64,000 bases of DNA from Vicinamibacteria bacterium (GTDB taxonomy: Bacteria; Acidobacteriota; Vicinamibacteria; Fen-336; CBDFGD01): assembly GCA_965246965.1 (NCBI GenBank), contig CBDFGD010000002.1:1899968-1963967 (forward strand), read 5' to 3'. The position numbers and the translations under genes are program-made. The notes beneath the pieces are model-generated. The model was given only the letters and a program-made list of their open reading frames with translations. It searched no databases and was not told where the DNA came from. Below are positions 3,670 to 62,001 of the stretch, in pieces. Every line of letters starts with the position of its first letter. The first letter of the stretch is position 1.

Positions 3670-4758
3670 ATGCCAGCCAAGCAACACTACTCCGTGATCG
3701 TCGGGAGCGGCTGCTACATCCCGACCCGAAGAGTGCCGAACGACGAGTTCCTCGAGCACCGGTTCTTCGACGCCGAAGGCGCACCGATCGATCACACGCA
3801 GAACGAGAAGACGGTTTGGAAGTTCGGCGAGATCACCGAGATCACGGAGCGACGCTACGTCACCGATGATCTGGTGGCTTCGGACATGGCTCTCGCCGCG
3901 GCGCGTGCGGCGCTCGAAGCTTGGGGCGGCGACCAGGAGCTGCTCGACTACGTCATCGTCGCCCACAACTTCGGTGACGTTCTCGCCGACAATCGCCGCT
4001 CAGACATGGTCCCGACGCTCGCCGCCCGCGTCAAGGAGCGGCTCGAGGTCAACAACCCTGCGTGCGTTGCCTACGACCTGCCCTTCGGCTGTCCCGGCTG
4101 GCTGCAGGCCGTGATCCAGGCGAACTACTACCTTCGCTCTGGGGACGCGCAGCGCGCCCTCGTGATCGGCGCGGAGACGTTGTCGCGCGTCTGTGATCCG
4201 CACGACCGGGACAGCATGATCTACGCGGACGGCGCCGGGGCCATCGTGCTGGAGGCGCGGGAGTCGGAGCGACCCGTCGGCGTCCTGACCCACGCAACGC
4301 GGTCGGACACTCTCGAGCACGCGCGCTTGTTGAAGATGGACCGGACGTACGACCCCGCTTGCCGCAGCGAAGCGCTGTATCTCAAGATGCGCGGCCGAAA
4401 GCTCTACGAGTACGCGCTGACGAACGTCCCCGGCGTGATGGTCGACAGCCTCGAGAAGGCGGGGCTCGAGCTCGGGGCCATCGACAAGATTCTGATTCAC
4501 CAGGCCAACGGAAAGATGGACCGGGCGATCGCGAAGCGGCTGGCTCGTCACTGCGGAACGACCCTGGAGACGGACCGGCTGGTGCCGATGACGGTCTCCT
4601 GGCTGGGCAACAGCTCCGTCGCCACGCTGCCGACGTTGCTCGATCTGATTCTGCGCGGGAAGCTCGAAGACCACACCCTCCACGATGGAGACAACGTCAT
4701 CTTCGCGTCGGTGGGAGCGGGGATGAACATCAACTCCCTCGTCTATCGCTGCGCTTGA
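3670..4758 (+). CDS. 3-oxoacyl-ACP synthase III (FabH-like KAS III) family protein
   Basis: ORF 3631..4758; likely start MPAKQHYSVIVGSGCYIP at 3670; motifs HNFGDV, AYDLPFGCPGW (active-site Cys), IHQANGKM, GAGMN. Confidence 0.8.
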   Translation: MPAKQHYSVIVGSGCYIPTRRVPNDEFLEHRFFDAEGAPIDHTQNEKTVWKFGEITEITERRYVTDDLVASDMALAAARAALEAWGGDQELLDYVIVAHNFGDVLADNRRSDMVPTLAARVKERLEVNNPACVAYDLPFGCPGWLQAVIQANYYLRSGDAQRALVIGAETLSRVCDPHDRDSMIYADGAGAIVLEARESERPVGVLTHATRSDTLEHARLLKMDRTYDPACRSEALYLKMRGRKLYEYALTNVPGVMVDSLEKAGLELGAIDKILIHQANGKMDRAIAKRLARHCGTTLETDRLVPMTVSWLGNSSVATLPTLLDLILRGKLEDHTLHDGDNVIFASVGAGMNINSLVYRCA

Positions 4759-6396: not shown

Positions 6397-7395
6397 CTAC
6401 TTCGAACCCCGGCGTTTCGCCTCGGCGATCAGATCCATGTTCCGCTCGTACGAGAGCTCGCCGGGGACCATGAGATCGGGTGGATAGGCCCGCTGCCCAT
6501 AAACCGGATACGCGCTCGTTCGCAGGTGCGCGAGCATGTGGTGACCGGACCGCGATTCGCGCTCGTGCCGAAGCGCCCCGATGTCGATCGGCGCCACGAC
6601 GATCCGCTCGCCGGGCCCGGGCGATGCCTCTGCCAACAAGCGACCGTCGAAGTCCACGACCTGACTACCGCCCGGCCAGGAGTACGGCGGGTAGTGCTTG
6701 AGGCTGGCCCCCTGGTTGGCGGCGACGACGTAGGTCATGTTCTCGAGCGCCCGGCAGCGGTTGACGACCGTCCACCAGTCCATCGGTGGCGTGGCCCCCC
6801 AGGGGTCCATGTACGCCGAGACGCGGACCAACACCTCGGCGCCGTTCGCCGCCAGCTGGCGCAGCGCCTCGGGGAACAGCCAGTCGTAGCAGATCGCGCA
6901 GCCGAGGCGGCCGATCGGCGTGTCGGCGACGGGAAACAACGGCTCCGAGTAGCCCTCGATGTCGTGGGGGCTCGTGTGCACCTCGTACGGAATCCACGTG
7001 TTGACCTTGCGGTATTTGTAGAGGATTCCCTCGGGGCCAATCAGGCACGTCGTGTTGAAGACGGCGCCGTCGTACTGGGCATCGACCTCGAGCATCGAGC
7101 CGCTCTGAATGTAGATGTCGTGCTCCTTCGCCTTCGCGTGCAGCTTCTCGGTGTGCTCGTTAGGGATCGCGACCGCGAGCTTCTCGCGCAGCTCGGCCAC
7201 GGTCTCGAAGACCGGCGCCGCGTGGGCGAACTCGGGAAAGACGACGAGGCGCACGGGCAGGAACGGGGCCGCGCCAACGACCGCCGAATCGATCATCTGC
7301 AGCATGCGGTCGGTGTTGCGGCGCATCTGGCCGCGCTCGACCGGGTTCTCGAGATCGGTCTGGCAGGCGGCGGCCGCGTATCGGAGCGTCGTCAA
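6397..7395 (-). CDS. Carbon-nitrogen hydrolase, aliphatic amidase/formamidase-like (nitrilase superfamily)
   Basis: 332 aa; catalytic triad context VVFPEFAHA (Glu), YRKVNTW (Lys), GCAICYD (Cys); overall similarity pattern to AmiE/AmiF. Confidence 0.8.
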   Translation of the reverse strand: MTTLRYAAAACQTDLENPVERGQMRRNTDRMLQMIDSAVVGAAPFLPVRLVVFPEFAHAAPVFETVAELREKLAVAIPNEHTEKLHAKAKEHDIYIQSGSMLEVDAQYDGAVFNTTCLIGPEGILYKYRKVNTWIPYEVHTSPHDIEGYSEPLFPVADTPIGRLGCAICYDWLFPEALRQLAANGAEVLVRVSAYMDPWGATPPMDWWTVVNRCRALENMTYVVAANQGASLKHYPPYSWPGGSQVVDFDGRLLAEASPGPGERIVVAPIDIGALRHERESRSGHHMLAHLRTSAYPVYGQRAYPPDLMVPGELSYERNMDLIAEAKRRGSK

Positions 7396-7396
7396 G

Positions 7397-10300
7397 TCAA
7401 TAGCCTGCGTCGATCCGGGCGCGCCGCCAGGCCGCGAGGATCGCCCAATCGATGGAGGGGATCTCGTCCCCCACGATCCGGGTGTTGTAGCGCTCCATCG
7501 TCTCGGCGAGCTCGGCCGTCAGCGGGAAGCTCTCCTCGGGACCGTAGGGGTAGCGTGTCATGCCGTGGAAAGGCAGCGGATGCAGCCTGTCGGGCGTCGC
7601 GGAGTTGATGTCCATCTCCTTGCTGAAGCCATCGGTGTAGAGCAGGAACGTGCGCTTCCACCCCTGCGGCAACGGCTCGAGGAAGCGGGCGTCGAAACGG
7701 AGCGCGATCTCGTCGCCGGGGCGCGAGAACACGAAGAGATCGTCCCCGGGGTGAAGCAGCGGAGCGACGTCACCGAGGCGCGTGTAGCGGCCGGGAAAGG
7801 CTTTCCACGGAGCCGCCCACGTCACGCTGTCGTAGTCGAAGCGCGTCGGCGCCACACCCTTGGACGCCAGCTCCTCCGAGAAGCCACGAAAGCGCAGCTC
7901 CGCGGCCTGGGGCGAGAGAACCTCGGTGCGCGTCTCGACGTTCTCGCCGGCACTTCCGATCAGCGCCTGATCCCAGTAGATGCGCATGTTCGTGACGATG
8001 CGCACCTCGCGCTCGGGCCCGAGCCAACGGCCCGTCAGGTCCACGACCACCGTCTGCGGCCGCCCCACGGGCACGCCGACCTCGGCTACGGCCGTCTTCC
8101 ACTGACCATCCCCGTCGCGCACTTCGAGTCGCGGCGGCTGGAGACCGAGGCCGCGCTGCGAGGCGGCGAGGTTGTCGCTCGAGAACGCGTAGTCCGTCCA
8201 GCCGTTGAGGAACAGGACGGCGTCGTCGGCCAGGTCACCCAGATCCAGGACGAGCGCGTGCTGCTTCGCGTAGCCGCGAATCGGCTCGAGGGCAAAGCCC
8301 GTCACGTACTTGCCGTCGATCGCGCGCAACGCGGCAAGGACGTCCTTGCCGGCTTCGTCGTGAGCGCGCTCCGGGGCGCGCCGAGCGCGCGTCGTGTAGA
8401 GCTTGAACGGGTGCGGCACACCGACCATCCCCTCGAGAGGGTAGATCTCGGCGTCACCCGGGTGAGCCACGACGTGGAGTCGGACTCCATCGAAGAACAA
8501 CGCCTCCTCGAGCTCGTTGGTCACACGCAGCTCGTAGCTCCCGCCGCGCTCGACGAGCTGGCGTTCGCTCAGGCGCACGTACTCGATCGGGTCCGGATGG
8601 TTGCGGATTCCGGGCGCCGCCCAGTAGCCCATCTCTCCGCCGCCCATGAAGTCGCTCACGAAGACGAACTTCTCCCCGTTCCAGGTGAATAAATAAGGAC
8701 AGGAAGACGGCTTGCGGTCCAGCTCCTGGATGTCGAGGCGAGCCGGGAGCAGGCCCCCCGCTTCGTCGATCGCGGTTTGGAGGATCCCGGCCGGCCACAA
8801 GACGCGGACGGCATCGGCGCCCCGGCGCACACCGAGACCGAAGAGCAGGTCCGCGGGTGCCGGGGCGGGCGATGCCGCGTACAGCTCGAGCTTCTGGTGC
8901 AGGCTGCCGGCCCGAACATCCAGCTTGGCGCCGATGCCGTCGCGATTGCTCACGCGGCCGGCGAGCGTCGCCAGGACCGCGGCGTTCCGGTTGCCCCCGT
9001 CGTTGCGAAGCAGACTCAGGTCGCCACCCGACCCGGACACGACGAGGTCGACGTCGCCGTCGCCGTCGAGGTCGCCGCTCGCCATCTGCGAGGCGGCGTC
9101 CGCCTCGAACGACGAAAGCCCAGCCGTGGCCTGGGGAACAGGGGCCCAGGAGCCACCCAGGTTGCGCGTCACGGCGAGCCCGTCCGGCCCCAGCGCGACG
9201 AGGTCGAGCAGCCCGTCGTTGTCGTAGTCGAGCACCTGCGCGGCGCTCGCACCGCGCGCCCGCTCGGGGCCCGGTAGCAGCTCGAAGCTCCCCTGGCCGT
9301 CACTCGAAGCGAACCAGCTCGCCTGCTCCGTCGCGAAGAAGAAATCGACGAACGAGTCCTTGTTGACGTCCCCCGCCGCGACCGCCGAAACGGCGCCCTG
9401 CAAGGCGAGCCCGACTGAAGTGGCGACATCGCCAAAGGTCTCGTCGCGCAGATTGCGCATCAAACGCGGTGCGGCGCCGTCGCTGACGAGAAGCAGGTCG
9501 GCATCCCGGCGGTTGTCGTAGTCGGTCGGGACGACCGCCACTCCCCTCCCGACGCCTCCTCCCACGCCGGCCGCGGTCGAGCCGTTCGAAAAGACGCCGG
9601 TGCCGTCGTTGCGCCACAGCTCGAACGGCGCGCCGACGACGAGATCGAGGTCACCGTCGTGATCGGCGTCGACCAGAGCCGCCACCGATGCCTTCGGCGT
9701 CACGGCAGAGAGCCCCGAGGCTTCGGTCGCGTCGACGAAGGCGACTCCGTCGCTGCGTTTGTAGAGCGCGCTCCCACCGCGGCCCCCACTCAAGAAGAAG
9801 ATGTCGGTGCGACCATCGTTGTCGACGTCGGCCGCCAGCGCCGCGGCGGCCCCCGAGGAAGCGTCGACGCCAAAGGCCCGGGTGGCATCCGAGAAACGGC
9901 CGCTCGAGTTGACCAGAACCGATCGCCCCGACTGCCCGGCGACCAACAGGTCCAGGTCGCCATCGTCGTCTACGTCGAACAACGTGGGACGACCCGTGCC
10001 GCCCAGCTCCTTCAGCCCGGCGGCCTCGGTGCCATCCGTGAAGCGAACCGCCGGAACCGCGCGATCGACGAGATCGGCCTCGCCGCCGGTCGATGCGATC
10101 GCCTCGGCGTAGCGCCCCTGCTCGAGATAGCTCTGGCCGAGCAGCGTGGCGTAGCCCGACCCCCGCAACACCTGGAAACGCTCGATCATCTCGCGGCCGG
10201 CGGCTCGATCACCGCCGCGAGTCAGCGCCATTCCCAGGTTGTAGACGGCCGTCGCGTTGTAGGGCTCGGACTCGACGGCGCTGCTGAGGGCCTCGATCGC

Positions 10301-14728: not shown

Positions 14729-16036
14729 ATGAACATCAAAGCACTTTTTCAGGCTCACGTGACCGCGCGCCGTGGCGCGCTCGACTCCGATCTGGAGGCC
14801 ACCGGACGCGACACCGTCGTCATCTCGAGCGGCGCGCCCATGACCTACTTCGCCGACGACAACGACGCTCCTTTCTTTCCGACGCCGCACTTCACGCACT
14901 GGTGTCCGATGCATGGGCCTCACCACCTCCTGCTTCTCCGCGCCGGGCACGAGCCGCGTCTGATCCGCTACATCCCCGAGGACTACTGGTACGAGCAGGC
15001 CCCGCTCGGCGATCCGTTCTGGGTGGAGGGTTTCGACGTCGTCGAGGTCGGGACTGTCGACGCGGCGTGGGCCGCCCTGGGCTCGGTTCCGAACGCCGCG
15101 TACATAGGCAATGAGACCGCCCGCGCCGAAGCGGCGGGCCTCGAGTGCAACCCCGAGCGCCTGACGTCCCGGCTGAATTGGGGCCGCAGCTACAAGACCG
15201 ACTACGAGCTGCACTGCCTCGAGCAGGCGACCCGCATCGCGGCCCGGGGGCACATCGCCGCGAAGCGCGCGTTCGAAGCGGGCGGGTCGGAAATGGAGAT
15301 CCACCACGCGTTCGTCACGGCTGCGGGCGTCACCGACGACCAGCTCCCGTACCCCTCGATCATCGCGATGAACGAGAAGGGCGCGACGCTGCACTACCAC
15401 GGCAAGCGTGGCGTCCGCGACGGGAAGGTGCTGCTGATCGACGTCGGCGCGCGGCACAACGGCTACGCTTCCGACATCACGCGCACCTACGGGCGCCATG
15501 GCGACGCGGCTGCTTTCTCCAAGGTCGTCGACGGACTCAATGACATCCAGCTCGGACTCTGCAAAGCCGTGAAGCCCGGCGTGCCGTTCGGCGACCTTCA
15601 CCACCAGGCCCATCTGGAGATCGCGGGGCTGCTGAACGAGATCGGCGTGATCCGTGCCGATCCCGAGGAGTCCGTGCGCGAGGGGTGGAGTCGCGCGTTC
15701 TTCCCGCACGGCCTGGGACACCATCTCGGCATTCAGGTGCACGACGTGGCGGGCCATCAAAAGAACGCCGACGGCGCACCGGCGCCTCCTCCTGAGCAGC
15801 ACCCCTATCTGCGCAACACCCGCACGCTCGAAGAACGGCACTGCTTCACGATCGAGCCGGGCATCTATTTCATCGAGATGCTGCTGCGACCGCTGCGCGA
15901 GGGGGAGCATTCGGAACGCTTCGACTGGAAGCTGATCGACGAGCTCAGCCCGTCGGGCGGTGTGAGGATCGAAGACAACGTCGTGGTGACGGACACGGGC
16001 CACCGCAACCTGACCACGGAGCATCTCCCTCACTAG
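14729..16036 (+). CDS. pepQ: Xaa-Pro dipeptidase (prolidase, M24B)
   Basis: Strong colinear similarity to E. coli PepQ from MNIKALFQAH through HGLGHHLGIQVHDV…TIEPGIYFIE…GGVRIEDNVVVT; start taken at internal Met of ORF 14609..16036. Confidence 0.85.
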   Translation: MNIKALFQAHVTARRGALDSDLEATGRDTVVISSGAPMTYFADDNDAPFFPTPHFTHWCPMHGPHHLLLLRAGHEPRLIRYIPEDYWYEQAPLGDPFWVEGFDVVEVGTVDAAWAALGSVPNAAYIGNETARAEAAGLECNPERLTSRLNWGRSYKTDYELHCLEQATRIAARGHIAAKRAFEAGGSEMEIHHAFVTAAGVTDDQLPYPSIIAMNEKGATLHYHGKRGVRDGKVLLIDVGARHNGYASDITRTYGRHGDAAAFSKVVDGLNDIQLGLCKAVKPGVPFGDLHHQAHLEIAGLLNEIGVIRADPEESVREGWSRAFFPHGLGHHLGIQVHDVAGHQKNADGAPAPPPEQHPYLRNTRTLEERHCFTIEPGIYFIEMLLRPLREGEHSERFDWKLIDELSPSGGVRIEDNVVVTDTGHRNLTTEHLPH

Positions 16037-16039
16037 CTC

Positions 16040-16582
16040 GTTCACGAATCGTGGTCCGCCTTCCCGCGAGCTAGCCTCACGATCAACGGCGGCCACGGAG
16101 GCACGGAGACACGGAGAACGGACTGCTCCGATCGTTCGCTATTCTTCGAATCAGAGAATCCGCCCCTCCGTCATCCTGAGGAAGCTCAGCGAATGAACGC
16201 GACGAAGGATCCGCCAGCTCCTCTACGTTTGAAACAGCTGACGATCGAGTGAAGAGGAGCAGACGGATTCTTCGCTCCAAGCGGAGACGAGCGGTTTCTC
16301 AGAATGACGAGGGGACGACTTTCGATCCGGCCAACGGCGATTGACGGATCGTCTCCTCGTCATCCTGAGCGAGTGCGGCTAGAGACGCGAGTCGAAGGAG
16401 CCAGCGAGGTGAGATGGCTTCTCTGGCCATCCTCCGCGCCCATCACCTCACCACGCGCCGGGCTCCCTCGATTCGAATTCTCCGCTGAACTCACTCGGGA
16501 TGACGAAAGTTGTTTGCCTTCGTGGCCGCCGTCGAGATCAGCAAGCGGGGACGAGCGGTTACTCAGAATGACGGATCGGCGG
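16040..16582. repeat. Repeat-dense intergenic region (multiple copies/orientations of CGTCATCCTGAG-type motif, tandem GGCACGGAGA mini-repeats, hairpins)
   Basis: Motif instances at ~16170, 16298 (rc), 16355, 16565 (rc); gaggcacggagacacggagaacgg at ~16095 matches 23790 region. Confidence 0.5.
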
Positions 16583-23765: not shown

Positions 23766-24002
23766 CGATCTGATTGCCACAGAGGCACAGAGGCACGGAG
23801 AACGGCTGGCTCCGAGCCTCGCTCAGCCAGATCGGCGGCTCGGAGTACGTCAGCCTGAGCGAGATCGGCCGGGGAGATGAGAGCGAGGGAGCCCGGCGCG
23901 TGACGCGTTGAACTCTCGCGGAGGATCCCCGAGGAGTCATCTCACCTCGCTGGCTCCTTCGCTCCGGTTTCCACGCGGATCATGCTCAGGATGACGATCC
24001 TT
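23766..24002. repeat. Repeat-dense intergenic region (tandem gaggcacagaggcacggagaacgg, CTCAGGATGACG motif)
   Basis: Matches motifs in 16040-16580 region. Confidence 0.45.
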
Positions 24003-24177
24003 GGCTAAGTACTCGGATCCGCAATTACGGTTGCATTCGAACGCCGATGCATCCCGCCTGGCTGCGTCGCTCATCGGTCAAATACTCCCGGTATTTTCCC
24101 TCTTCGGCTCCTTGCCATCCGGGCGCCTCGGCGTTCTCGGTTGCGACACCGTACTTACGGATCAGAGTACTAAGGCG
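24003..24177 (+). repeat. Repeat family copy A: 92-nt conserved core (24045-24132) flanked by ~45-nt mutually complementary arms
   Basis: Core about 95% identical to copies at 26626-26793 (rc) and 61836-62001; arms ggctaagtactcggatccgcaattacggttgcattcgaacgccg / cggcgttctcggttgcgacaccgtacttacggatcagagtactaaggcg are inverted complements. Confidence 0.75.
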
Positions 24178-24278
24178 TTCCTTTCGCCTTCGTCATCCCG
24201 ACCGAGAGGTACCGCGCAGAGTGGGCCTCTTTGGTGAACGTGATACCAGGGGCGCCGGTCGAAGGCCGGCGGCCCTGG

Positions 24279-25603
24279 TCAGCGTGGCCCGGCTCGGAGC
24301 GGTGCCCGAGCGACCCCGTCCGGCTGCTTGAAGACCTTCCCGTCCTTCATCACGAACGCGATCGTCTCCATCACACCGATCTCCGTCAGCGGATCGCCGG
24401 GTACGGCGATCACGTCCGCGATCTTGCCGACCTCGATCGTGCCGAGCCGGTCGTCGATCTTCAGCAACCGGGCCGCCGTCGAGGTGGCTGACCGGATCGC
24501 CTCGAGCGGCGGCATGCCGCCCTCGACCATGTAGGCGAACTCCTGACCGTTCCTGCCGTGCGGCGACACGCCGGTGTCCGTGCCGAAGGCGATGGTCACG
24601 CCGGCCTGGTAGGCCTTCGCGAACGTCTCGTCGATCACCGCCCGATCGCCCTCGCTTTCGGTCGCACGATCTCGGGGAGGAATCCCGGCTCCTCGGCTTT
24701 CATGGCGACGTAGCGACCCGCGCTGATCGTCGGCACCCAGAAGGTCCCCTTTTCCTTCATCAGCGCCATGATCTCGTCGGTCATGTAGGTGCCGTGCTCG
24801 ATCGAGTCGATGCCCGCCAGCACCGCGCGCTTCATCCCCTCGGCGCCGTGGGCGTGAACCGCGACGGGCATGCCGTACTCGCGAGCGGTCTCGACGATCG
24901 CCGCGAGCTCGTCCGGCTTGAACTGCGGGTTGTCGCCGCTCTTCGCGAGACTGAGAACGCCGCCGGTCGCGGTGAGCTTGATCAGATCGGAACCGTCCTT
25001 GTAGCGCTGCCGTACCGCCTTGCGCGCCTCGATGGGACCGTTCACGACCCCCTCATTGGGACCGGGATCGCCACGGAAGCGAAAGGCGATTCCGTTGGTC
25101 GGGTCGGCGTGGCCGCCGGTCGTCGCGAGCGACTTGCCCGCAGCGAAGACGCGTGGGCCGACGATCCAGCCCTTGTCGATCGCGTTCCGCAACGACAGCG
25201 TGACCCTGTCGCGCCCGCCGAGGTCGCGCACCGTCGTGAAGCCCGCCAGCAGGGTCCGCTCCGCGTAGAGGGTGGCGCGGAGCGCGACGTCGGTCGGGTT
25301 GAGGAAGTAGCGCTCGCTGTAGCCTTGCGGAGACAGCTCTCCGAAAAGGTGAACGTGCGCGTCCATCAGGCCCGGCATGACGGTGTGCTGCTTCAGGTCG
25401 ATCACGGTGTCGCCGTCCCCCGCGGCGACATAGCCGTCGGCGACCTTCGTGATGCGATCCTTCCCGATCACGACCGACATCTCGCTACGCGGGTCGCCGC
25501 CGCCGCCATCGATGAGGCGGCCGGCATGGATGATCACGGCCGCGTCGATCTGCGTCGCCAGCAACAGCGCCAAGGCCGTGAAGCTCGGGCGTAGTCTCAT
25601 CAT
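24279..25603 (-). CDS. Secreted metal-dependent amidohydrolase family protein, apparent frameshift near 24635-24650
   Basis: ORF 24635..25603 (signal peptide; HVH metal site, AVHAHG) continues as ORF 24279..24638 ([22 protein letters not shown]…) at junction …IVRPKA|IDETF…. Confidence 0.7.
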
Positions 25604-26625: not shown

Positions 26626-26793
26626 CTAGTGGCCCGTAACAGGGAGGTCGATGCCAGCGAGACCGTCGAGGCGCCCGGATGGCAAGGAGCCGAAGAGGGA
26701 GAATACCGGGAGTATTTGACCGATGAGCGACGCAGCCAAGCGGGATGCATCGGCGGTCGCAACGGTATCGAATCCCCTGTTACAGGCCACTAG
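26626..26793 (-). repeat. Repeat family copy B (inverted relative to A and C)
   Basis: Core 26663-26756 is rc of copy A core; arms gctagtggcccgtaacagggaggtcgatgcc / ggtatcgaatcccctgttacaggccactag are inverted complements but differ in sequence from arms of A and C. Confidence 0.75.
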
Positions 26794-28688
26794 AGAGCAT
26801 TGTGGAGCTGAGCGGCGAACGCTCGCCATTGGATGAGCACACCCCAGGCCACGACGTAGGAGAACGCCACCGTCGCGAGCAGCCACTCAGGACGACTTCG
26901 ATGCGCCAGAGCCCGAAGTGACGCGCCGGCCATCAGGCACACCAGCGGCGTGACGAAAGTGGTCTCGTGGCCGTGCAGAAAGATGTCGGGGAGCTTCGCC
27001 CGCCCGAGCAATAGAAGAAGGTAGGCAAGCCCCCAGCCGACCAGCAGAACCGTGTGATGCCTGGCTCGTCGCAAGGTCACGAAAAGCCCGGCCAGCGCGA
27101 GTAGCGGCAGCAGACCGTCGAAGAAATCACGGGTGCGCGCGCAGGCGACGGCCAGGAACGACTGCGCCTCGTAGCGTCCCGCGGAAGCCGCAGCACCCAC
27201 GTCCAGGCGCGAGAGGATCGCGACGACGATGTCCAGAAAGCGTCCGTAGTAGAGGATCAGCGATGTCGCGGCCCCGGCGACGCCGACAGCGGCGAGCACC
27301 GCGGCCTGGCGGGGTCGCTTCGTCGCCAGCAGCAGAAGCGAGACGGACAGCACCAGCGCTCCGCTGTTGAGCAGGCCCGAAACGTACGCGAGCTGGCTCG
27401 CGGCAACGACGGCCACACCGAGCACGAACGCCGCGCGTCGCTCGATTCGCGGAAGGTTGTACGCCAGCCACAGCAGCAGCACGAGATCGAAGACGTGACC
27501 CAAAAGCGACGGCAGGAAGGCGAAGCTGAGGCGCGTGCCGTAGGTCGGCACGACGACCATCAGCAGAGCCGGCATCAGAGGCGTCACGCCGAGCCGAAGT
27601 GCAAGCGCCCAGACCAGTGCGATCGGAATCACCGAGAGAGCGACGCCCGCGAGCTTCATCGCGGTGATCAGCTCGTCGTACTCGAGCGGAGAGAGGACGA
27701 ACGGAAGATGGAACGCAGGGCTGTACGGGAAGGCGTACGAGCGATCGACGACCTCCAGCTTCCACACGCCGTGCTCGAGGATGGTCGCGGCCGGATCGGA
27801 CGAGAACCCGAGACCCGCCTCGCGAATCTCCTCGGCGAAGCGAGCGTGGGTGTGCAGATCCGGGTAGTAGAAGTCGGGATGGTTGACCGCCGCCGCGCGC
27901 GCCAAAAGCGCCACGCCGACGATCGTGGCGAGGGCTCGCAGCGTCGGGGGCGAGCAGCGAAGCCGCCACCCGACCGCGAGACCCAGCCCGGCGACGACGG
28001 CGAGCAGAAGCGGGACGCCTGTCAGCATCCGGTGGGCCAGCCAAGGATCCGTCACGAGACCCGCGATCACGAAAGCCGCAACGACGCCGGCCTGAGCGGT
28101 GGCCCAGCGCCGCCGCCAACCGGCCAGGCGCAAGACGAGGAAGCAGATGGCGACGAGCGCCGCCGACCCGAGACGGGCGCGAGGGGCCAGTCGGACCCGC
28201 GCGCGCTCGCCCAGCTCGAAGACCACCCGGTCGAGCCTCAGGCCCAACCGCTGACGGTCGTGGGAGTCGACCCGGAAGCGCAGGGAGAGGGGCGTCTCGG
28301 GCAGCGCGGCGAGATCCACGCGCCGTTCCTCGACTCGCCCGCCGCGACACGTGAACCGGTCGATGTCCGCGCCGGCGAGCGAGACGTCGACGACCGCGGT
28401 CTCGGGCAACACCCGCGCAAACCGGTACGACACGGCAATCGGCCCGCCCTCCACGAGGAGCGGCAACGCGACCGTCGCGTCGTAGCCGGTCCAGTGGGTC
28501 CCGACCCGGTCCCGGACCTCGAAGCGAGGCGTGAACCCGGTCGTCAACGCCGAGTCGCCGGGACCGAGGTTCCCGACGATCGTCGAGGGGCCTCGCGCAC
28601 CGTGTGACGCCGCGGCGATCGTCAGCGCGACGAGCACCGCTCCCGGCCAGGCTTCGGCCAGCGCGCGGCGAGCCCGAGGGGAACTCAT
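26790..28688 (-). CDS. Polytopic integral membrane protein (N-terminal periplasmic domain + ~12 TM; glycosyltransferase-C-like?), downstream of sat/cysC
   Basis: 632 aa ORF, highly hydrophobic C-terminal two-thirds; no confident family assignment from sequence alone. Confidence 0.5.
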   Translation of the reverse strand: MSSPRARRALAEAWPGAVLVALTIAAASHGARGPSTIVGNLGPGDSALTTGFTPRFEVRDRVGTHWTGYDATVALPLLVEGGPIAVSYRFARVLPETAVVDVSLAGADIDRFTCRGGRVEERRVDLAALPETPLSLRFRVDSHDRQRLGLRLDRVVFELGERARVRLAPRARLGSAALVAICFLVLRLAGWRRRWATAQAGVVAAFVIAGLVTDPWLAHRMLTGVPLLLAVVAGLGLAVGWRLRCSPPTLRALATIVGVALLARAAAVNHPDFYYPDLHTHARFAEEIREAGLGFSSDPAATILEHGVWKLEVVDRSYAFPYSPAFHLPFVLSPLEYDELITAMKLAGVALSVIPIALVWALALRLGVTPLMPALLMVVVPTYGTRLSFAFLPSLLGHVFDLVLLLWLAYNLPRIERRAAFVLGVAVVAASQLAYVSGLLNSGALVLSVSLLLLATKRPRQAAVLAAVGVAGAATSLILYYGRFLDIVVAILSRLDVGAAASAGRYEAQSFLAVACARTRDFFDGLLPLLALAGLFVTLRRARHHTVLLVGWGLAYLLLLLGRAKLPDIFLHGHETTFVTPLVCLMAGASLRALAHRSRPEWLLATVAFSYVVAWGVLIQWRAFAAQLHNAL

Positions 28689-53424: not shown

Positions 53425-53631
53425 ATGCCGCGAAAGAAGATGTACCGGTCTCGTGACGAGCGGATCATCGGAGGCGTGTGCGGCGGCCTGGCGCTGCGCC
53501 TGAAATGGAGCCCGGCTGCGGTCCGAGCCATCTTCGTCGTGGGCACGCTCTTCCCACTGATACCAGGCCCGCTCGTCTACCTGCTGCTCTGGATCCTGAT
53601 CCCGCTGGAGTCGGGGCGCCGTGCCCCCTAG
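53425..53631 (+). CDS. PspC-domain small membrane protein
   Basis: YRSRDERIIGGVCGGLA motif + TM. Confidence 0.7.
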   Translation: MPRKKMYRSRDERIIGGVCGGLALRLKWSPAAVRAIFVVGTLFPLIPGPLVYLLLWILIPLESGRRAP

Positions 53632-53632
53632 C

Positions 53633-55090
53633 AGTCCGTGGTGAAAGTGCCCTTTGAGCGGGCCTTACGTGACAAGTGCATGTCTTAGTGTTCGTGCATG
53701 GCGATGGGCAAACATAAGAAACGTCAAGAGGCGTTGTGGGTGCCGACGAGCGATCTGCCGCGGAGCCCTGGGCATCCTTTCTATTCGCGTTTGAATAGAG
53801 CGCTGGAGTCCGAGGGCTTCGACAGATTCGTGGAATCGCGATGCCGCCGGTTCTATGCGGCGGTTCTGGGGCGTCCGAGCCTGGCCCCTGGACGCTACTT
53901 TCGGCTCTTGCTGGTGGGGTACTTCGAGGGCCTGGACTCCGAGCGTGGGATGGCGTGGCGTGCAGCGGACTCGCTTGGGGTGCGGAGCTTCCTGGGGCTT
54001 GGGTTGGAGGAGCGGGCCCCGGAACATTCGACGATCTCGCGGACCCGGCGGCTGATCGACTTGGAAACCCACCGTGACGTGTTCACCTGGATCCAAGAGC
54101 GCCTGGCGCAGACGGGTCTTCTGAGCGGAAAGACGATTGCGATCGACGCGACGACGCTGGAAGCGAACGCGGCGATGCGGAGCATCGTGCGTCGGGATAC
54201 CGGAGAGACCTACCAGGAGTTCTTGAAGCGTCTGGCGAAGGCGTCTGGCATTCGCACGCCCTCTCGGCAAGCGCTGGCGCGGCTGGATCGGCGGCGCAAG
54301 AAGAAAGGCTCGAACGAGGAATGGAAGAGTCCGGCGGATCCGGACGCGAAGATCGCCAAAATGAAGGATGGTCGTACCCATCTGGCCCACAAAACCGAGC
54401 AGGCCGTGGACCTGACGACGGGGGCGATCGTGTCGGTGACGGTCCAGGGCGCGAACCAGGGCGACACGAGCACGCTGGGCAAGACGCTCAAGGACGCCGA
54501 GACTCAGATCGAGCGCGTTCAGAAGCGGACCCGTGCTTGCCATCCCGGAGGCCTGCAGGAAGTGGTTGGCGACAAGGGTTACCACTCCACTGCGGTTCTC
54601 CAGGAGTTGGACGCTGCGGGGCTGCGTGCGTACATATCCGAACCCGACCGTGGTCGTCGGCGATGGCGGGGCGACACCGAGAGCCGTGGCCTGGTGTACG
54701 CGAACCGTCGGCGAAGCGGCGGGGCACGAGGTCAGCGTCTGCACCGCCTCCGAGGAGAACGGGTGGAGCGACCCTTCGCTCATCTCTACCGAACCGGCCG
54801 CATGAGACGCACGCACCTTCGCGGTCACGAGAACATCCTCAAACGGGTGCTGGTCCACAGCGGTGCCTTCAATCTCGGGCTGCTGATGCGCCAGATCGTC
54901 GGAGTCGGGACGCCGAGGGGCCTGCAGGGCCGGCTCCATGACCTTCTGGCACAGCTCCTTCACCTCTGGAACCGCCTGACGGCCATCACAACGGCTCCTA
55001 CCAACCACGAACAGCTCTCGCACAATGCCCGCCACTCAGCTCCGTCGCCCTCCATCGCCGCCTCGGAAGGGCTTTAACCACGGACTGCTA
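53633..55090 (+). mobile_element. IS element, IS5/IS1182-type, with ~25-bp imperfect terminal inverted repeats and 4-bp CTAG target duplication
   Basis: Left end cagtccgtggtgaaagtgccc (53633-), right end …ccacggactg (55081-55090); flanked by CTAG at 53629-53632 and 55091-55094; contains single DDE transposase ORF. Confidence 0.8.
53698..55077 (+). CDS. DDE transposase (InsH-N/DUF772 + DDE_Tnp_1 type)
   Basis: 459 aa; IAIDATTLEANAAMRS, VVGDKGYHS DDE motifs. Confidence 0.85.
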   Translation: MAMGKHKKRQEALWVPTSDLPRSPGHPFYSRLNRALESEGFDRFVESRCRRFYAAVLGRPSLAPGRYFRLLLVGYFEGLDSERGMAWRAADSLGVRSFLGLGLEERAPEHSTISRTRRLIDLETHRDVFTWIQERLAQTGLLSGKTIAIDATTLEANAAMRSIVRRDTGETYQEFLKRLAKASGIRTPSRQALARLDRRRKKKGSNEEWKSPADPDAKIAKMKDGRTHLAHKTEQAVDLTTGAIVSVTVQGANQGDTSTLGKTLKDAETQIERVQKRTRACHPGGLQEVVGDKGYHSTAVLQELDAAGLRAYISEPDRGRRRWRGDTESRGLVYANRRRSGGARGQRLHRLRGERVERPFAHLYRTGRMRRTHLRGHENILKRVLVHSGAFNLGLLMRQIVGVGTPRGLQGRLHDLLAQLLHLWNRLTAITTAPTNHEQLSHNARHSAPSPSIAASEGL

Positions 55091-60771: not shown

Positions 60772-61839
60772 GTGGGCGTCAATCTCGAAAAGTACCGCGA
60801 GACGCTGCTGAAGGCGGACTTCCTCGCGCACATCCCAGAGGCGACGCTTCGTGACTTCGTCGCCGCCGGGCGGGAGATCACGCTCCGTTCGGGCCAGCTC
60901 ATTTTCGAGGCCGGCGACTCGGGCGACTGCATGTACATCGTCATCGAGGGCCAGCTGCTGATCTACCGGGACGAGACCGAGCTCTCCTTCGTCGTGCCCG
61001 GCGGTTATTTCGGCGAGATGGCGATGCTGGAGGGCCAGGTCCGATCGGCCAGCGTCAAGGCACTCGAGCGGGCCCGCCTGATGGAGGTGAGCCAGGACAC
61101 CTTCACGCGCTTCATCTCACCGCATCCCGACGCACTGATCGTCCTGCTCAAGACCCTGTCCACCCACGCCCGGCTCGACCTGGACGCCTTGTCGCGGAAC
61201 TACCAGCGTCTCCGCGAGTACTCGACCCGTGTCGAGGCCACCAACCGAGAGCTCTACAAGATGAGGTCCGATCTCGTCGAGAGCAATCGGGAGCTGGAGC
61301 GCTTGTCGAGCCTGGATGCGTTGACCGGGATCTCGAACCGCAGACGCTTCGACTACGTGCTCTCCGAGGAGTGGCGCCGCGCCGCTCGTGCGAAGTCCCC
61401 GATGGCGCTCATCATGCTGGACATCGACCACTTCAAGTCCTACAACGACGCTCACGGTCACGTCGCCGGGGATCACGTACTGACGCGCGTCGGCGAGATC
61501 ATGGAGAGCGCTCCCCGGCGCGCCGGCGACCTCGTCGCCCGTTACGGCGGGGAGGAGTTCGCGTTCGTGCTGGCCGAGACGGGCCCCGAAGGCGCGACTC
61601 AGGTCGCCGAGGCCGTGCGCGAGGAGGTTCTCCAGCTCAAGATCGCACACGGCGGCTCTTCGGTCCACGAGTACCTCACGATCAGCGCAGGAGTGGCGTC
61701 GGTCGTGCCGAAGCCGAGTGACGATCCCACCGAGCTGATCCAACTAGCCGATCAGGCCCTGTACCTCGCCAAGCAGCGCGGGCGGAATCGCGTCGAGGTC
61801 AGCGGCCCCGAGAGCGCCGAGCACTCTCAGGTGAGCTAG
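60772..61839 (+). CDS. cNMP-binding domain + GGDEF diguanylate cyclase
   Basis: PBC GEMAMLEGQVRSASVKA; GGDEF core RYGGEEFAFVL with DxxNDxxGH upstream. Confidence 0.85.
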   Translation: MGVNLEKYRETLLKADFLAHIPEATLRDFVAAGREITLRSGQLIFEAGDSGDCMYIVIEGQLLIYRDETELSFVVPGGYFGEMAMLEGQVRSASVKALERARLMEVSQDTFTRFISPHPDALIVLLKTLSTHARLDLDALSRNYQRLREYSTRVEATNRELYKMRSDLVESNRELERLSSLDALTGISNRRRFDYVLSEEWRRAARAKSPMALIMLDIDHFKSYNDAHGHVAGDHVLTRVGEIMESAPRRAGDLVARYGGEEFAFVLAETGPEGATQVAEAVREEVLQLKIAHGGSSVHEYLTISAGVASVVPKPSDDPTELIQLADQALYLAKQRGRNRVEVSGPESAEHSQVS

Positions 61840-62001
61840 TGTCATGCGCCAGAGATTTGTCGGCATTCGAGCGCCGATGCATCCCGCCTGACTGCGTCGC
61901 TCATTGGTCAAATACTCCCGGTATTCTCCCTCTTCGACTCCTTGCCAGCCGGGCGCCTCGACGCCCTCGGTGCGCAACAACTTCTGGCGCAGGCCACTAG
62001 T
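61836..62001 (+). repeat. Repeat family copy C
   Basis: Core 61873-61964 matches copies A/B; arms gctagtgtcatgcgccagagatttgtcggcattcgagcgccg / cgacgccctcggtgcgcaacaacttctggcgcaggccactag are inverted complements; overlaps GGDEF stop TAG (61837-61839) and putative start of next gene. Confidence 0.75.

Follow-up and report, generated by a model that had tools for sequence, protein, structure and literature searches.

With a probability of about 85%, three related hairpin sequences in the window (the whole 64,000-nt stretch of DNA analysed here) are members of a large family, common among soil Acidobacteria, of type II MITEs, which are non-autonomous cut-and-paste DNA transposons. The family of these copies A, B and C is new, and the MITE is a known kind of element. 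Each copy is built of two terminal inverted repeats of ~24 nt around a non-coding core of ~112 nt that is itself an imperfect hairpin. The elements are small and non-coding, carry terminal inverted repeats and target-site duplications, lie dispersed in the genome and are present or absent at orthologous loci.

The original prediction had left the choice between a structured non-coding RNA and a MITE. The MITE side stands by the target-site duplications, the CTAG targeting, the empty sites, the hundreds of copies and the cognate insertion sequences (ISs), and the side of a free-standing RNA gene does not stand.

Window copies and their target sites

The three copies and their parts are as follows.

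24009-24170, + strand: MITE copy A, 162 nt, from the sequence and a covariance-model match of 160.2 bits; its arms, read from the sequence, are GTACTCGGATCCGCAATTACGGTT / ...CACCGTACTTACGGATCAGAGTAC on either side of the conserved core
24006-24008: TAA, left unit of copy A's 3-bp target-site duplication in the target C-TAA-G, read directly
24171-24173: TAA, right unit of the target-site duplication of copy A, read directly
24044-24132, + strand: conserved core of copy A, CCGATGCATCCCG ... GGGCGCCTCGG, from the alignments and the metagenome set anchored on both edges
24080-24096, + strand: apical mini-hairpin of copy A, AAATAC-TCCCG-GTATTT, which caps the long hairpin, from the folds
26629-26790, - strand: MITE copy B, 162 nt, from the sequence and the covariance model
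26791-26792 and 26627-26628: TA and TA flanking copy B, read from the sequence
61839-61997, + strand: MITE copy C, 159 nt, from the sequence and the covariance model
61837-61838 and 61998-61999: TA and TA flanking copy C, read from the sequence

The core 19-mer GTCAAATACTCCCGGTATT occurs three times in the window with none expected, and a search of the 64 kb for a fourth copy with nhmmer and the covariance model found only A, B and C. Among the three, pairwise identity is 94–98% in the cores and 26–51% in the arms, and each copy folds into one long hairpin of −77.7 (A), −85.5 (B) or −68.8 kcal/mol (C), with z scores against shuffles of −5.5, −8.2 and −2.5. Thus the ~95% identical core between differing, self-complementary arms is borne out as originally described. 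In the alignments and the edge-anchored metagenome set, the core is the only part common to all arm types. The elements have a GC content of 0.59–0.63 against 0.669 window-wide. The flanks of copy A (23985-24005 and 24175-24200) are partly inverted to each other, GGATGACGA ... TCGTCATCC, so an older, small palindrome between the convergent genes may enclose this copy.

TA or TAA direct repeats border every window copy within C-T(N)A-G. The C-TAA-G target of copy A lies between convergent genes and involves no stop codon. Copies B and C each lie on a TAG stop codon within CTAG, so the earlier remark on CTAG-targeting elements was right for these two and the overlap with a TAG stop holds at both. 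The first G of copy B (26790) completes the TAG stop of the gene at 26790..28688(-). Copy C lies in a CTAG where the TAG stop of a GGDEF gene (60772..61839) overlapped the start of its neighbour, an 81-aa gene with its GTG start at 62000. This insertion separated the two overlapping genes by 161 nt, with the stop and start codons both kept.

Empty sites were located only via orthologues of the flanking proteins; there are none among the fetched MITE loci themselves. The orthologue of the GGDEF gene upstream of copy C, 81% identical, is on a relative's contig (L092), and this locus has a clean empty site, ...GTCG-CTAG-TGCC..., where the filled site in the window reads ...GAG-C-TA-[159 nt]-TA-G-TGCC.... 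At the site of copy B, the relatives' contigs L093-L095 hold a 41-nt spacer, ...GCTCTGTAGCCCGATCCCGAC..., in place of the MITE. The empty site reads ...CTCTGTAGCCC... in L093 and L095, and the filled one ...GCTCT-C-TA-[162 nt]-TA-G-CCCC.... At each empty site there is just one CTAG or GTAG. They have neither arms nor core, therefore the arms and the core arrived together. The check for mobility proposed with the original prediction, by target-site duplications and empty sites in relatives, hence gives TA or TAA duplications at A, B and C and empty sites for B and C.

Another orthologue of the copy C site, on contig L091 (~4066-4090), reads CTAGTG-GCCGGGCG-CTAGTG with 14 extra nt including a second CTAG. 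Its GCCGGGCGC is also present in the MITE core. An excision footprint is one candidate origin of the extra 14 nt, a deletion remnant the other.

Among the flanks of 49 parsed copies, C-TA...TA-G is the commonest (20) and other outer bases also occur. Since the outer bases vary around it, TA is what is duplicated. Within any one copy of the TNA arm classes, the left and right middle bases agree, and they vary from copy to copy. With G as its first base and C as its last, the element restores CTAG at both junctions. Because insertion rebuilds CTAG on both sides, MITEs and ISs form end-to-end arrays.

CTAG is ~7-fold depleted in the window, where 27 are observed against 196 expected from the base composition, and the junctions of the three MITEs and the IS described below account for 6 of the 27. 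Among the matches listed, 22 of 70 full-length copies adjoin a predicted stop codon. The location at gene 3′ ends would reflect that CTAG is scarce in a 67% GC genome and that stop codons supply much of the remainder. Elsewhere in the window, at 16033-16074, a 36-nt stretch with 5-nt inverted ends, GCTCGTTCACGAATCGTGGTCCGCCTTCCCGCGAGC, lies between two CTAGs; a CTAG-targeting element may have left it as a remnant or footprint.

Family members, arm types and partner insertion sequences

An exact-match scan of one genome per species, which yielded an apex-selected set (set 1), finds the family at ≥90 genome loci, i.e. at least that many. The hosts among the matches listed are nearly all Vicinamibacterales or other Acidobacteriota MAGs, with dozens of copies per genome. 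A metagenome scan anchored on both core edges, and so not selected on the interior (set 2), gives at least 120 loci. The count of three therefore holds for the window, by the exact 19-mer, nhmmer and the covariance model alike, and fails as a family size. The proposed search for the core in related genomes is answered by hundreds of copies in Vicinamibacterales MAGs and metagenomes.

At least nine arm groups occur in the metagenome set, and its duplications are of two classes, TA and TNA. Copies are 157–173 nt long, and most arm types ~160 nt. No match was found in plasmid, phage and IMG/VR collections. Rfam 15 gives no match in the whole window at gathering scores and a single chance-level match for copy A at E up to 10. 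As to coding capacity, no frame is open throughout 65 anchored copies and the lengths differ by non-multiples of 3, which agrees with the earlier judgement that the short ORF through the core is probably non-coding.

An A-type copy occurs in the relatives at another locus (L095 3747-3971), on the TAG stop of an ATP-sulfurylase gene. It is ~95% identical to copy A outside a 63-nt insertion, compared with ~80% for the host genes. Longer variants of 172, 184 and 225 nt have extra paired segments or the 63-nt insertion inside the core (L001, L005, L009, L018, L033, L036, L040, L044, L056, L073 and L095 3747-3971). In four loci (L042, L074, L077, L083), a tiny second palindromic repeat, GGGGTCCCCAACGCGGCWGCCGCGTTGGGG, is inserted within MITE copies and may represent another mobile hairpin family.

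MAGs labelled Solirubrobacterales carry a hairpin element of 158–160 nt with TAA/TTA duplications and ends GGGCTCACGACTGAATTA (L004, L015, L021, L030, L049, L061, L062, L069, L070). It has only the apical ~20 nt in common with the acidobacterial family (CGTCAAATACTCCCGGTATT), folded at the tip. Transfer, recombination and mis-binning are candidate causes of this apex in those MAGs.

By sequence comparison, the arms are terminal inverted repeats of ~24 nt with tips that match the ends of real ISs; these links between arm type and IS rest on 9–21 nt of terminal identity. The commonest arm type in most MAGs is GCAGCCCGTGGTGAAAGTCC, of which the window has no copy. Outside MITEs, this arm sequence occurs in the window as one pair 1.46 kb apart, at the ends of an IS.

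53631-55088, + strand: intact IS of 1458 bp with ends GCAGTCCGTGGTGAAAGTGC / GGGCTTTAACCACGGACTGC, in C-TA-G...C-TA-G, from a terminal-repeat search and the sequence
53698-55077, + strand: gene of that IS for a 459-aa DDE transposase (Pfam DUF772, 3.4e-16; DDE_Tnp_1, 1.9e-06)

The best NCBIfam match of the 459-aa transposase is IS1182 at 169 bits, below the cut-off of 270, and the next is IS5 at 100 bits. The IS and the main-type MITE have only the terminal 18–21 nt in common, at 90–94% identity. Judged from these ends, the IS is the putative autonomous partner of the commonest arm type. A related 459-aa gene is on the relative's contig L091 (6739 onward).

The relatives also have an IS630-family element of 1116 bp with a 321-aa DDE_3 product and tips GTGGCCTGTAA... 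/ ...CGGGCCAC. Copy B has the same tips over 11 and 9 nt, including the same T/C asymmetry at position 7. The IS630 family duplicates 2 bp (TA) in CTAG (PMC2577343, Table 1). At one CTAG, which was made by a MITE end, this element is absent from L095, present once in L093 (2862-3821) and twice in tandem in L094 (1741-3821). The three contigs come from three ENA assemblies and encode an identical ApbA protein sequence. Because the copy number at the same CTAG is 0, 1 or 2, these contigs are direct sequence evidence that the IS630-family element was recently active in this lineage.

Copy C matches the IS630-family tips on the right (GTGGCCTG, 8 nt) and has two mismatches on the left, and its arm is probably of the IS630-family type. 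Other IS630-like elements have ends resembling further arm types. No partner IS was found for the arm of copy A or the left tip of copy C; the window and the first 90 loci listed contain none for the arms of A, B and C, and the 64-kb window has no IS630 element. Queries with 15-mers of the other arm types returned chance-level matches only.

Two further elements were seen in these loci. An IS701-family element (L017 2715-4128 and many CBDAOD01 loci) has a 434-aa ORF scoring 300 bits and ends GTACTACTTTGTTAGATC..., lies in CTAG and often adjoins a MITE end to end. It has GTACT...GATCCGCAATT in common with the arm of copy A, which makes it a lead, and only that, to the partner of this arm. In L024 (5999-8000), the transposase gene of an IS630-like element is broken by a reverse-transcriptase ORF on the minus strand (6550..7500), assigned by eye to the group II intron type from sequence motifs only.

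These observations suggest a scheme for the mobility of the family. DDE transposases of resident ISs, supplied in trans, would insert the element into the T(N)A of C-T(N)A-G. The insertion duplicates TA or TNA and rebuilds CTAG, and a TAG stop and an overlapping GTG start survive it. The arms would be the ends recognized by the transposases, each arm type answering to its own kind of IS: the IS630 family in B and probably in C, an IS1182/IS5-like element for the commonest type and an enzyme making TNA duplications for A. Since transposon ends are inverted repeats, the arms are self-complementary. The sequences themselves show the limits of the element, its duplications and empty sites, the size of the family, the match of arm tips to IS ends and the covariation and asymmetry of the core; the pairing of transposases with arm types, the manner of arm exchange and the part played by the core are inferred.

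The core and its two strands

The hairpin is maintained by compensatory change. In the alignment of 70 copies, 94.5% of the cells are paired, compared with 38–47% with slid partners, and changes on both sides occur in 33 of 42 pairs, which answers the proposed covariation check. Helix 1 has compensatory change at each of its 19 pairs. The covariation score is 0.341 against 0.109 shuffled and 0.03–0.07 slid, and in the arms such covariation is also expected from terminal repeats alone. Thus the long RNA stem that had been proposed divides in two: the self-complementarity of the arms by itself needs no RNA stem, whereas in the core the helices covary and positions outside Watson-Crick pairing persist.

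We judged the core interior on the edge-anchored set 2, as set 1 had been selected on the apex. In set 2, the core pairs 17-47, 20-44, 21-43, 25-39, 28-36 and 29-35 covary. Four oppositions are fixed in the 65 copies: T15·C49 (65/65), C16·T48 (64/65), T18·C46 (59/65) and C19·T45 (60/65). The pairs between them switch among G-C, C-G and A-T. On the opposite strand, the fixed T·C/C·T oppositions are tandem G·A/A·G, as 5′-GA N GA-3′ over 3′-AG N′ AG-5′. Conserved sequence forms a left-hand block, GCGTTGCTCNTCG, and a right-hand block, CTCN′TCGCGCCTTGC, and the distance from the tip to the core, at GATGCATCCCG, is 37 nt in nearly all arm types.

In copies not selected on it, the apex forms a hairpin whose stem covaries and whose loop differs in sequence. 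An invariant 19-nt apex across phyla was considered and is largely an ascertainment effect of the first scan; the exact 19-mer occurs in 4 of 98 edge-anchored copies. As candidates for the apex, an IHF site and a CsrA-type GGA loop were rejected, since the motifs fit poorly or lack conservation. Identity in the core is uncorrelated with identity in the arms (r = 0.06). MAG CBDAOD01 gives no support to a general homogenization of cores within a genome, as its minor arm types have clearly diverged cores.

The strand opposite to the one on which the original prediction wrote the core, called minus here, folds better in 163 of 168 copies, so the strand as originally written is the weaker one. The advantage is 10–13 kcal/mol with RNA parameters and 6–7 kcal/mol with DNA parameters. 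For copies A, B and C, the minus strand has −81.0, −90.3 and −78.8 kcal/mol against −71.6, −79.5 and −57.5 for the opposite strand. A·C is more frequent than G·T in both sets, with counts of 70:38 (set 1) and 78:36 (set 2).

Between co-directional genes, the better-folding strand is the mRNA sense by a weak bias, in 28:16 and 25:15 cases, 53:31 combined (p = 0.02); the gene calls for these orientation counts come from a home-made GC3 method and are approximate, and the copies share descent, so that neither counts nor p values represent independent events. Copies adjoining stop codons show no orientation preference (12:9 and 18:25), and window copies B and C have the weaker-folding strand in the mRNA sense. 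The two strands of the core are therefore not equivalent. For a plain DDE-mobilized MITE, no need of a strand-specific hairpin is known; the strand stability, the A·C excess and the orientation bias together point to a role as RNA or single-stranded DNA, beyond the simple MITE model. Selection maintains the core as a strand-specific hairpin whose length is fixed.

What the core is kept for can be read in several ways. We propose that it serves the element, perhaps by bringing both ends together at the base of the hairpin or by binding a host factor. Alternatively, it would act on the transcripts reading through it. The presence of one core with different ends would come from re-arming of a resident core or from gene conversion of cores.

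Alternative readings and known systems

An extension of the MITE model is that the core functions as a strand-specific structured module, RNA or single-stranded DNA, read from the minus strand, with tandem sheared G·A pairs that a protein could bind; the transposon ends would be merely its vehicle and several ISs would carry the cassette. We hold this tentatively, at somewhat below even odds. It is favoured by the pyrimidine-pyrimidine oppositions conserved between covarying Watson-Crick pairs, the more stable minus strand, the ~2:1 excess of A·C over G·T in two independently collected sets and the bias between co-directional genes. It gains also from the lack of correlation between core and arm identities, the nearly identical window cores on three different arm pairs and the closeness of copy A to its relative's copy, beyond that of the host genes. 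Against it, a search of copy A and its flanks (23900-24300) for promoter- or terminator-like sites gave none and Rfam has no matching family. Moreover, the stop-codon-adjoining copies and copies B and C do not follow the orientation, some conserved oppositions favour the strand other than minus (e.g. T12·G52 in 62/65) and the asymmetry could stem from one ancestor plus DNA-level constraint. Slightly more doubtful still is the full form of this idea, that the ~90-nt core is a portable strand-specific hairpin module with its own function, spread by the IS ends fitted to it. Such a module would be a hairpin of RNA or single-stranded DNA in which G·A pairs stand in tandem and the geometry is fixed, serving protein binding, transcript processing or stabilization or assistance to transposition, and would take its ends from any active CTAG/TNA-targeting IS (IS630, IS1182/IS5-like and others).

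The other readings dispense with a DDE-type MITE and are much less likely. Single-strand "peel and paste" elements of the IS200/IS605 or REP/REPIN-RAYT kind, with T(N)A as the cleavage motif, would explain the strand-specific hairpin stability and the insertion beside a short fixed motif, and REPIN-like long hairpins are known; this is improbable, because the TNA middle base, which agrees left and right of a copy and varies between copies, is what the duplication of a staggered cut would give, the inverted-repeat ends match DDE-type ISs and the relation of conserved arms to variable loop is here reversed. In a non-systematic look at the surroundings of the copies, no Y1/HUH transposase gene was noticed beside any of them. 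Very improbable is a non-mobile family of free-standing structured RNA genes with the arms as a long closing stem under compensatory substitution. The covariation over the whole hairpin is strong and unpaired positions are conserved, but the target-site duplications and clean empty sites contradict this reading. So do the dozens of copies per genome at non-orthologous places, the arm tips equal to IS ends, the occurrence of both orientations relative to genes and the failure to find a promoter or terminator at copy A or an Rfam match. It is just as hard to maintain the original alternative of a core element inserting into the loops of pre-existing palindromes, or of a core MITE nested in short MITEs. 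The same core does lie between unrelated arm pairs, and CTAG-seeking elements here are often arranged end to end or nested. However, the arms are terminal inverted repeats with IS-like tips, and the arm/core junctions have no TA, CTAG or duplication in any arm type. The arms are a constant ~24 nt in a total of ~160 nt that is not additive, the empty sites for B and C lack arms and core alike and a search for palindromes of arms only found none. The preferred reading thus remains the type II MITE with a conserved core and exchangeable ends.

MITEs are usually seen as decayed ISs, with conserved ends and a drifting interior. This family reverses the pattern by a conserved, structured, strand-asymmetric interior and ends exchanged between transposase families. 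Should the core have a function, it would be a clear example, in bacteria, of a structured module hitch-hiking on several transposon systems, and a handle on gene-end biology in the Vicinamibacterales, an abundant soil group rarely cultured. The family marks stop codons and operon junctions and, at copy C, split an overlapping TAGTG stop/start. As the rebuilt CTAG hot spots attract further ISs, the family should be masked or annotated in these genomes.

With the type II MITEs, defined as MITEs that have only the terminal repeats in common with an IS (PMC10969869), the family shares a size of ~160 bp, the non-coding interior, the multiple copies, the terminal inverted repeats and the target-site duplication. 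The IS identity is likewise confined to the ends and the empty sites show mobility. Unlike them, it combines one core with at least nine terminal-repeat types and the ends of at least two IS families, makes two lengths of duplication (TA and TNA) in this one family and has a core of fixed length with conserved non-Watson-Crick positions and strand asymmetry.

The Correia elements of Neisseria (CREE/NEMIS, ~100–155 bp) are similar in the TA duplication, the long inverted ends and the transcript hairpins. The centre of the Correia element holds a functional site for a host factor, IHF (PMC10969869). This centre is an analogue for a useful core, although no IHF site or promoter is shown here. The Correia elements differ by the absence of sequence similarity, the other host phylum and the ends as their conserved part.

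The IS630 and IS5/IS1182 elements resemble the family in the terminal sequences of particular arm types and, for IS630, also in the target of TA in CTAG. Unlike these ISs, the MITE lacks a transposase gene, and nothing in it resembles their interiors. In terms of enzyme superfamilies, IS630 corresponds to Tc1/mariner and IS5 to PIF/Harbinger.

In plants, the Stowaway MITEs (Tc1/mariner) duplicate TA and the Tourist MITEs (PIF/Harbinger) TAA/TTA, and both lie near genes and fold into hairpins. The present family has both duplication classes, TA and T(A/T)A. The interiors of plant Stowaway and Tourist are unrelated, whereas here both duplication classes have the same core.

The REP/REPIN elements are mobilized by RAYT, an HUH (Y1) enzyme, and have conserved arms and a variable loop without target duplication. 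The family is like them in the long, imperfect and strand-specific hairpins, the extragenic location, the abundance and the pairing kept by compensatory change. Unlike them, its arms vary and its core is conserved, TA or TNA is duplicated and the ends match DDE-type ISs.
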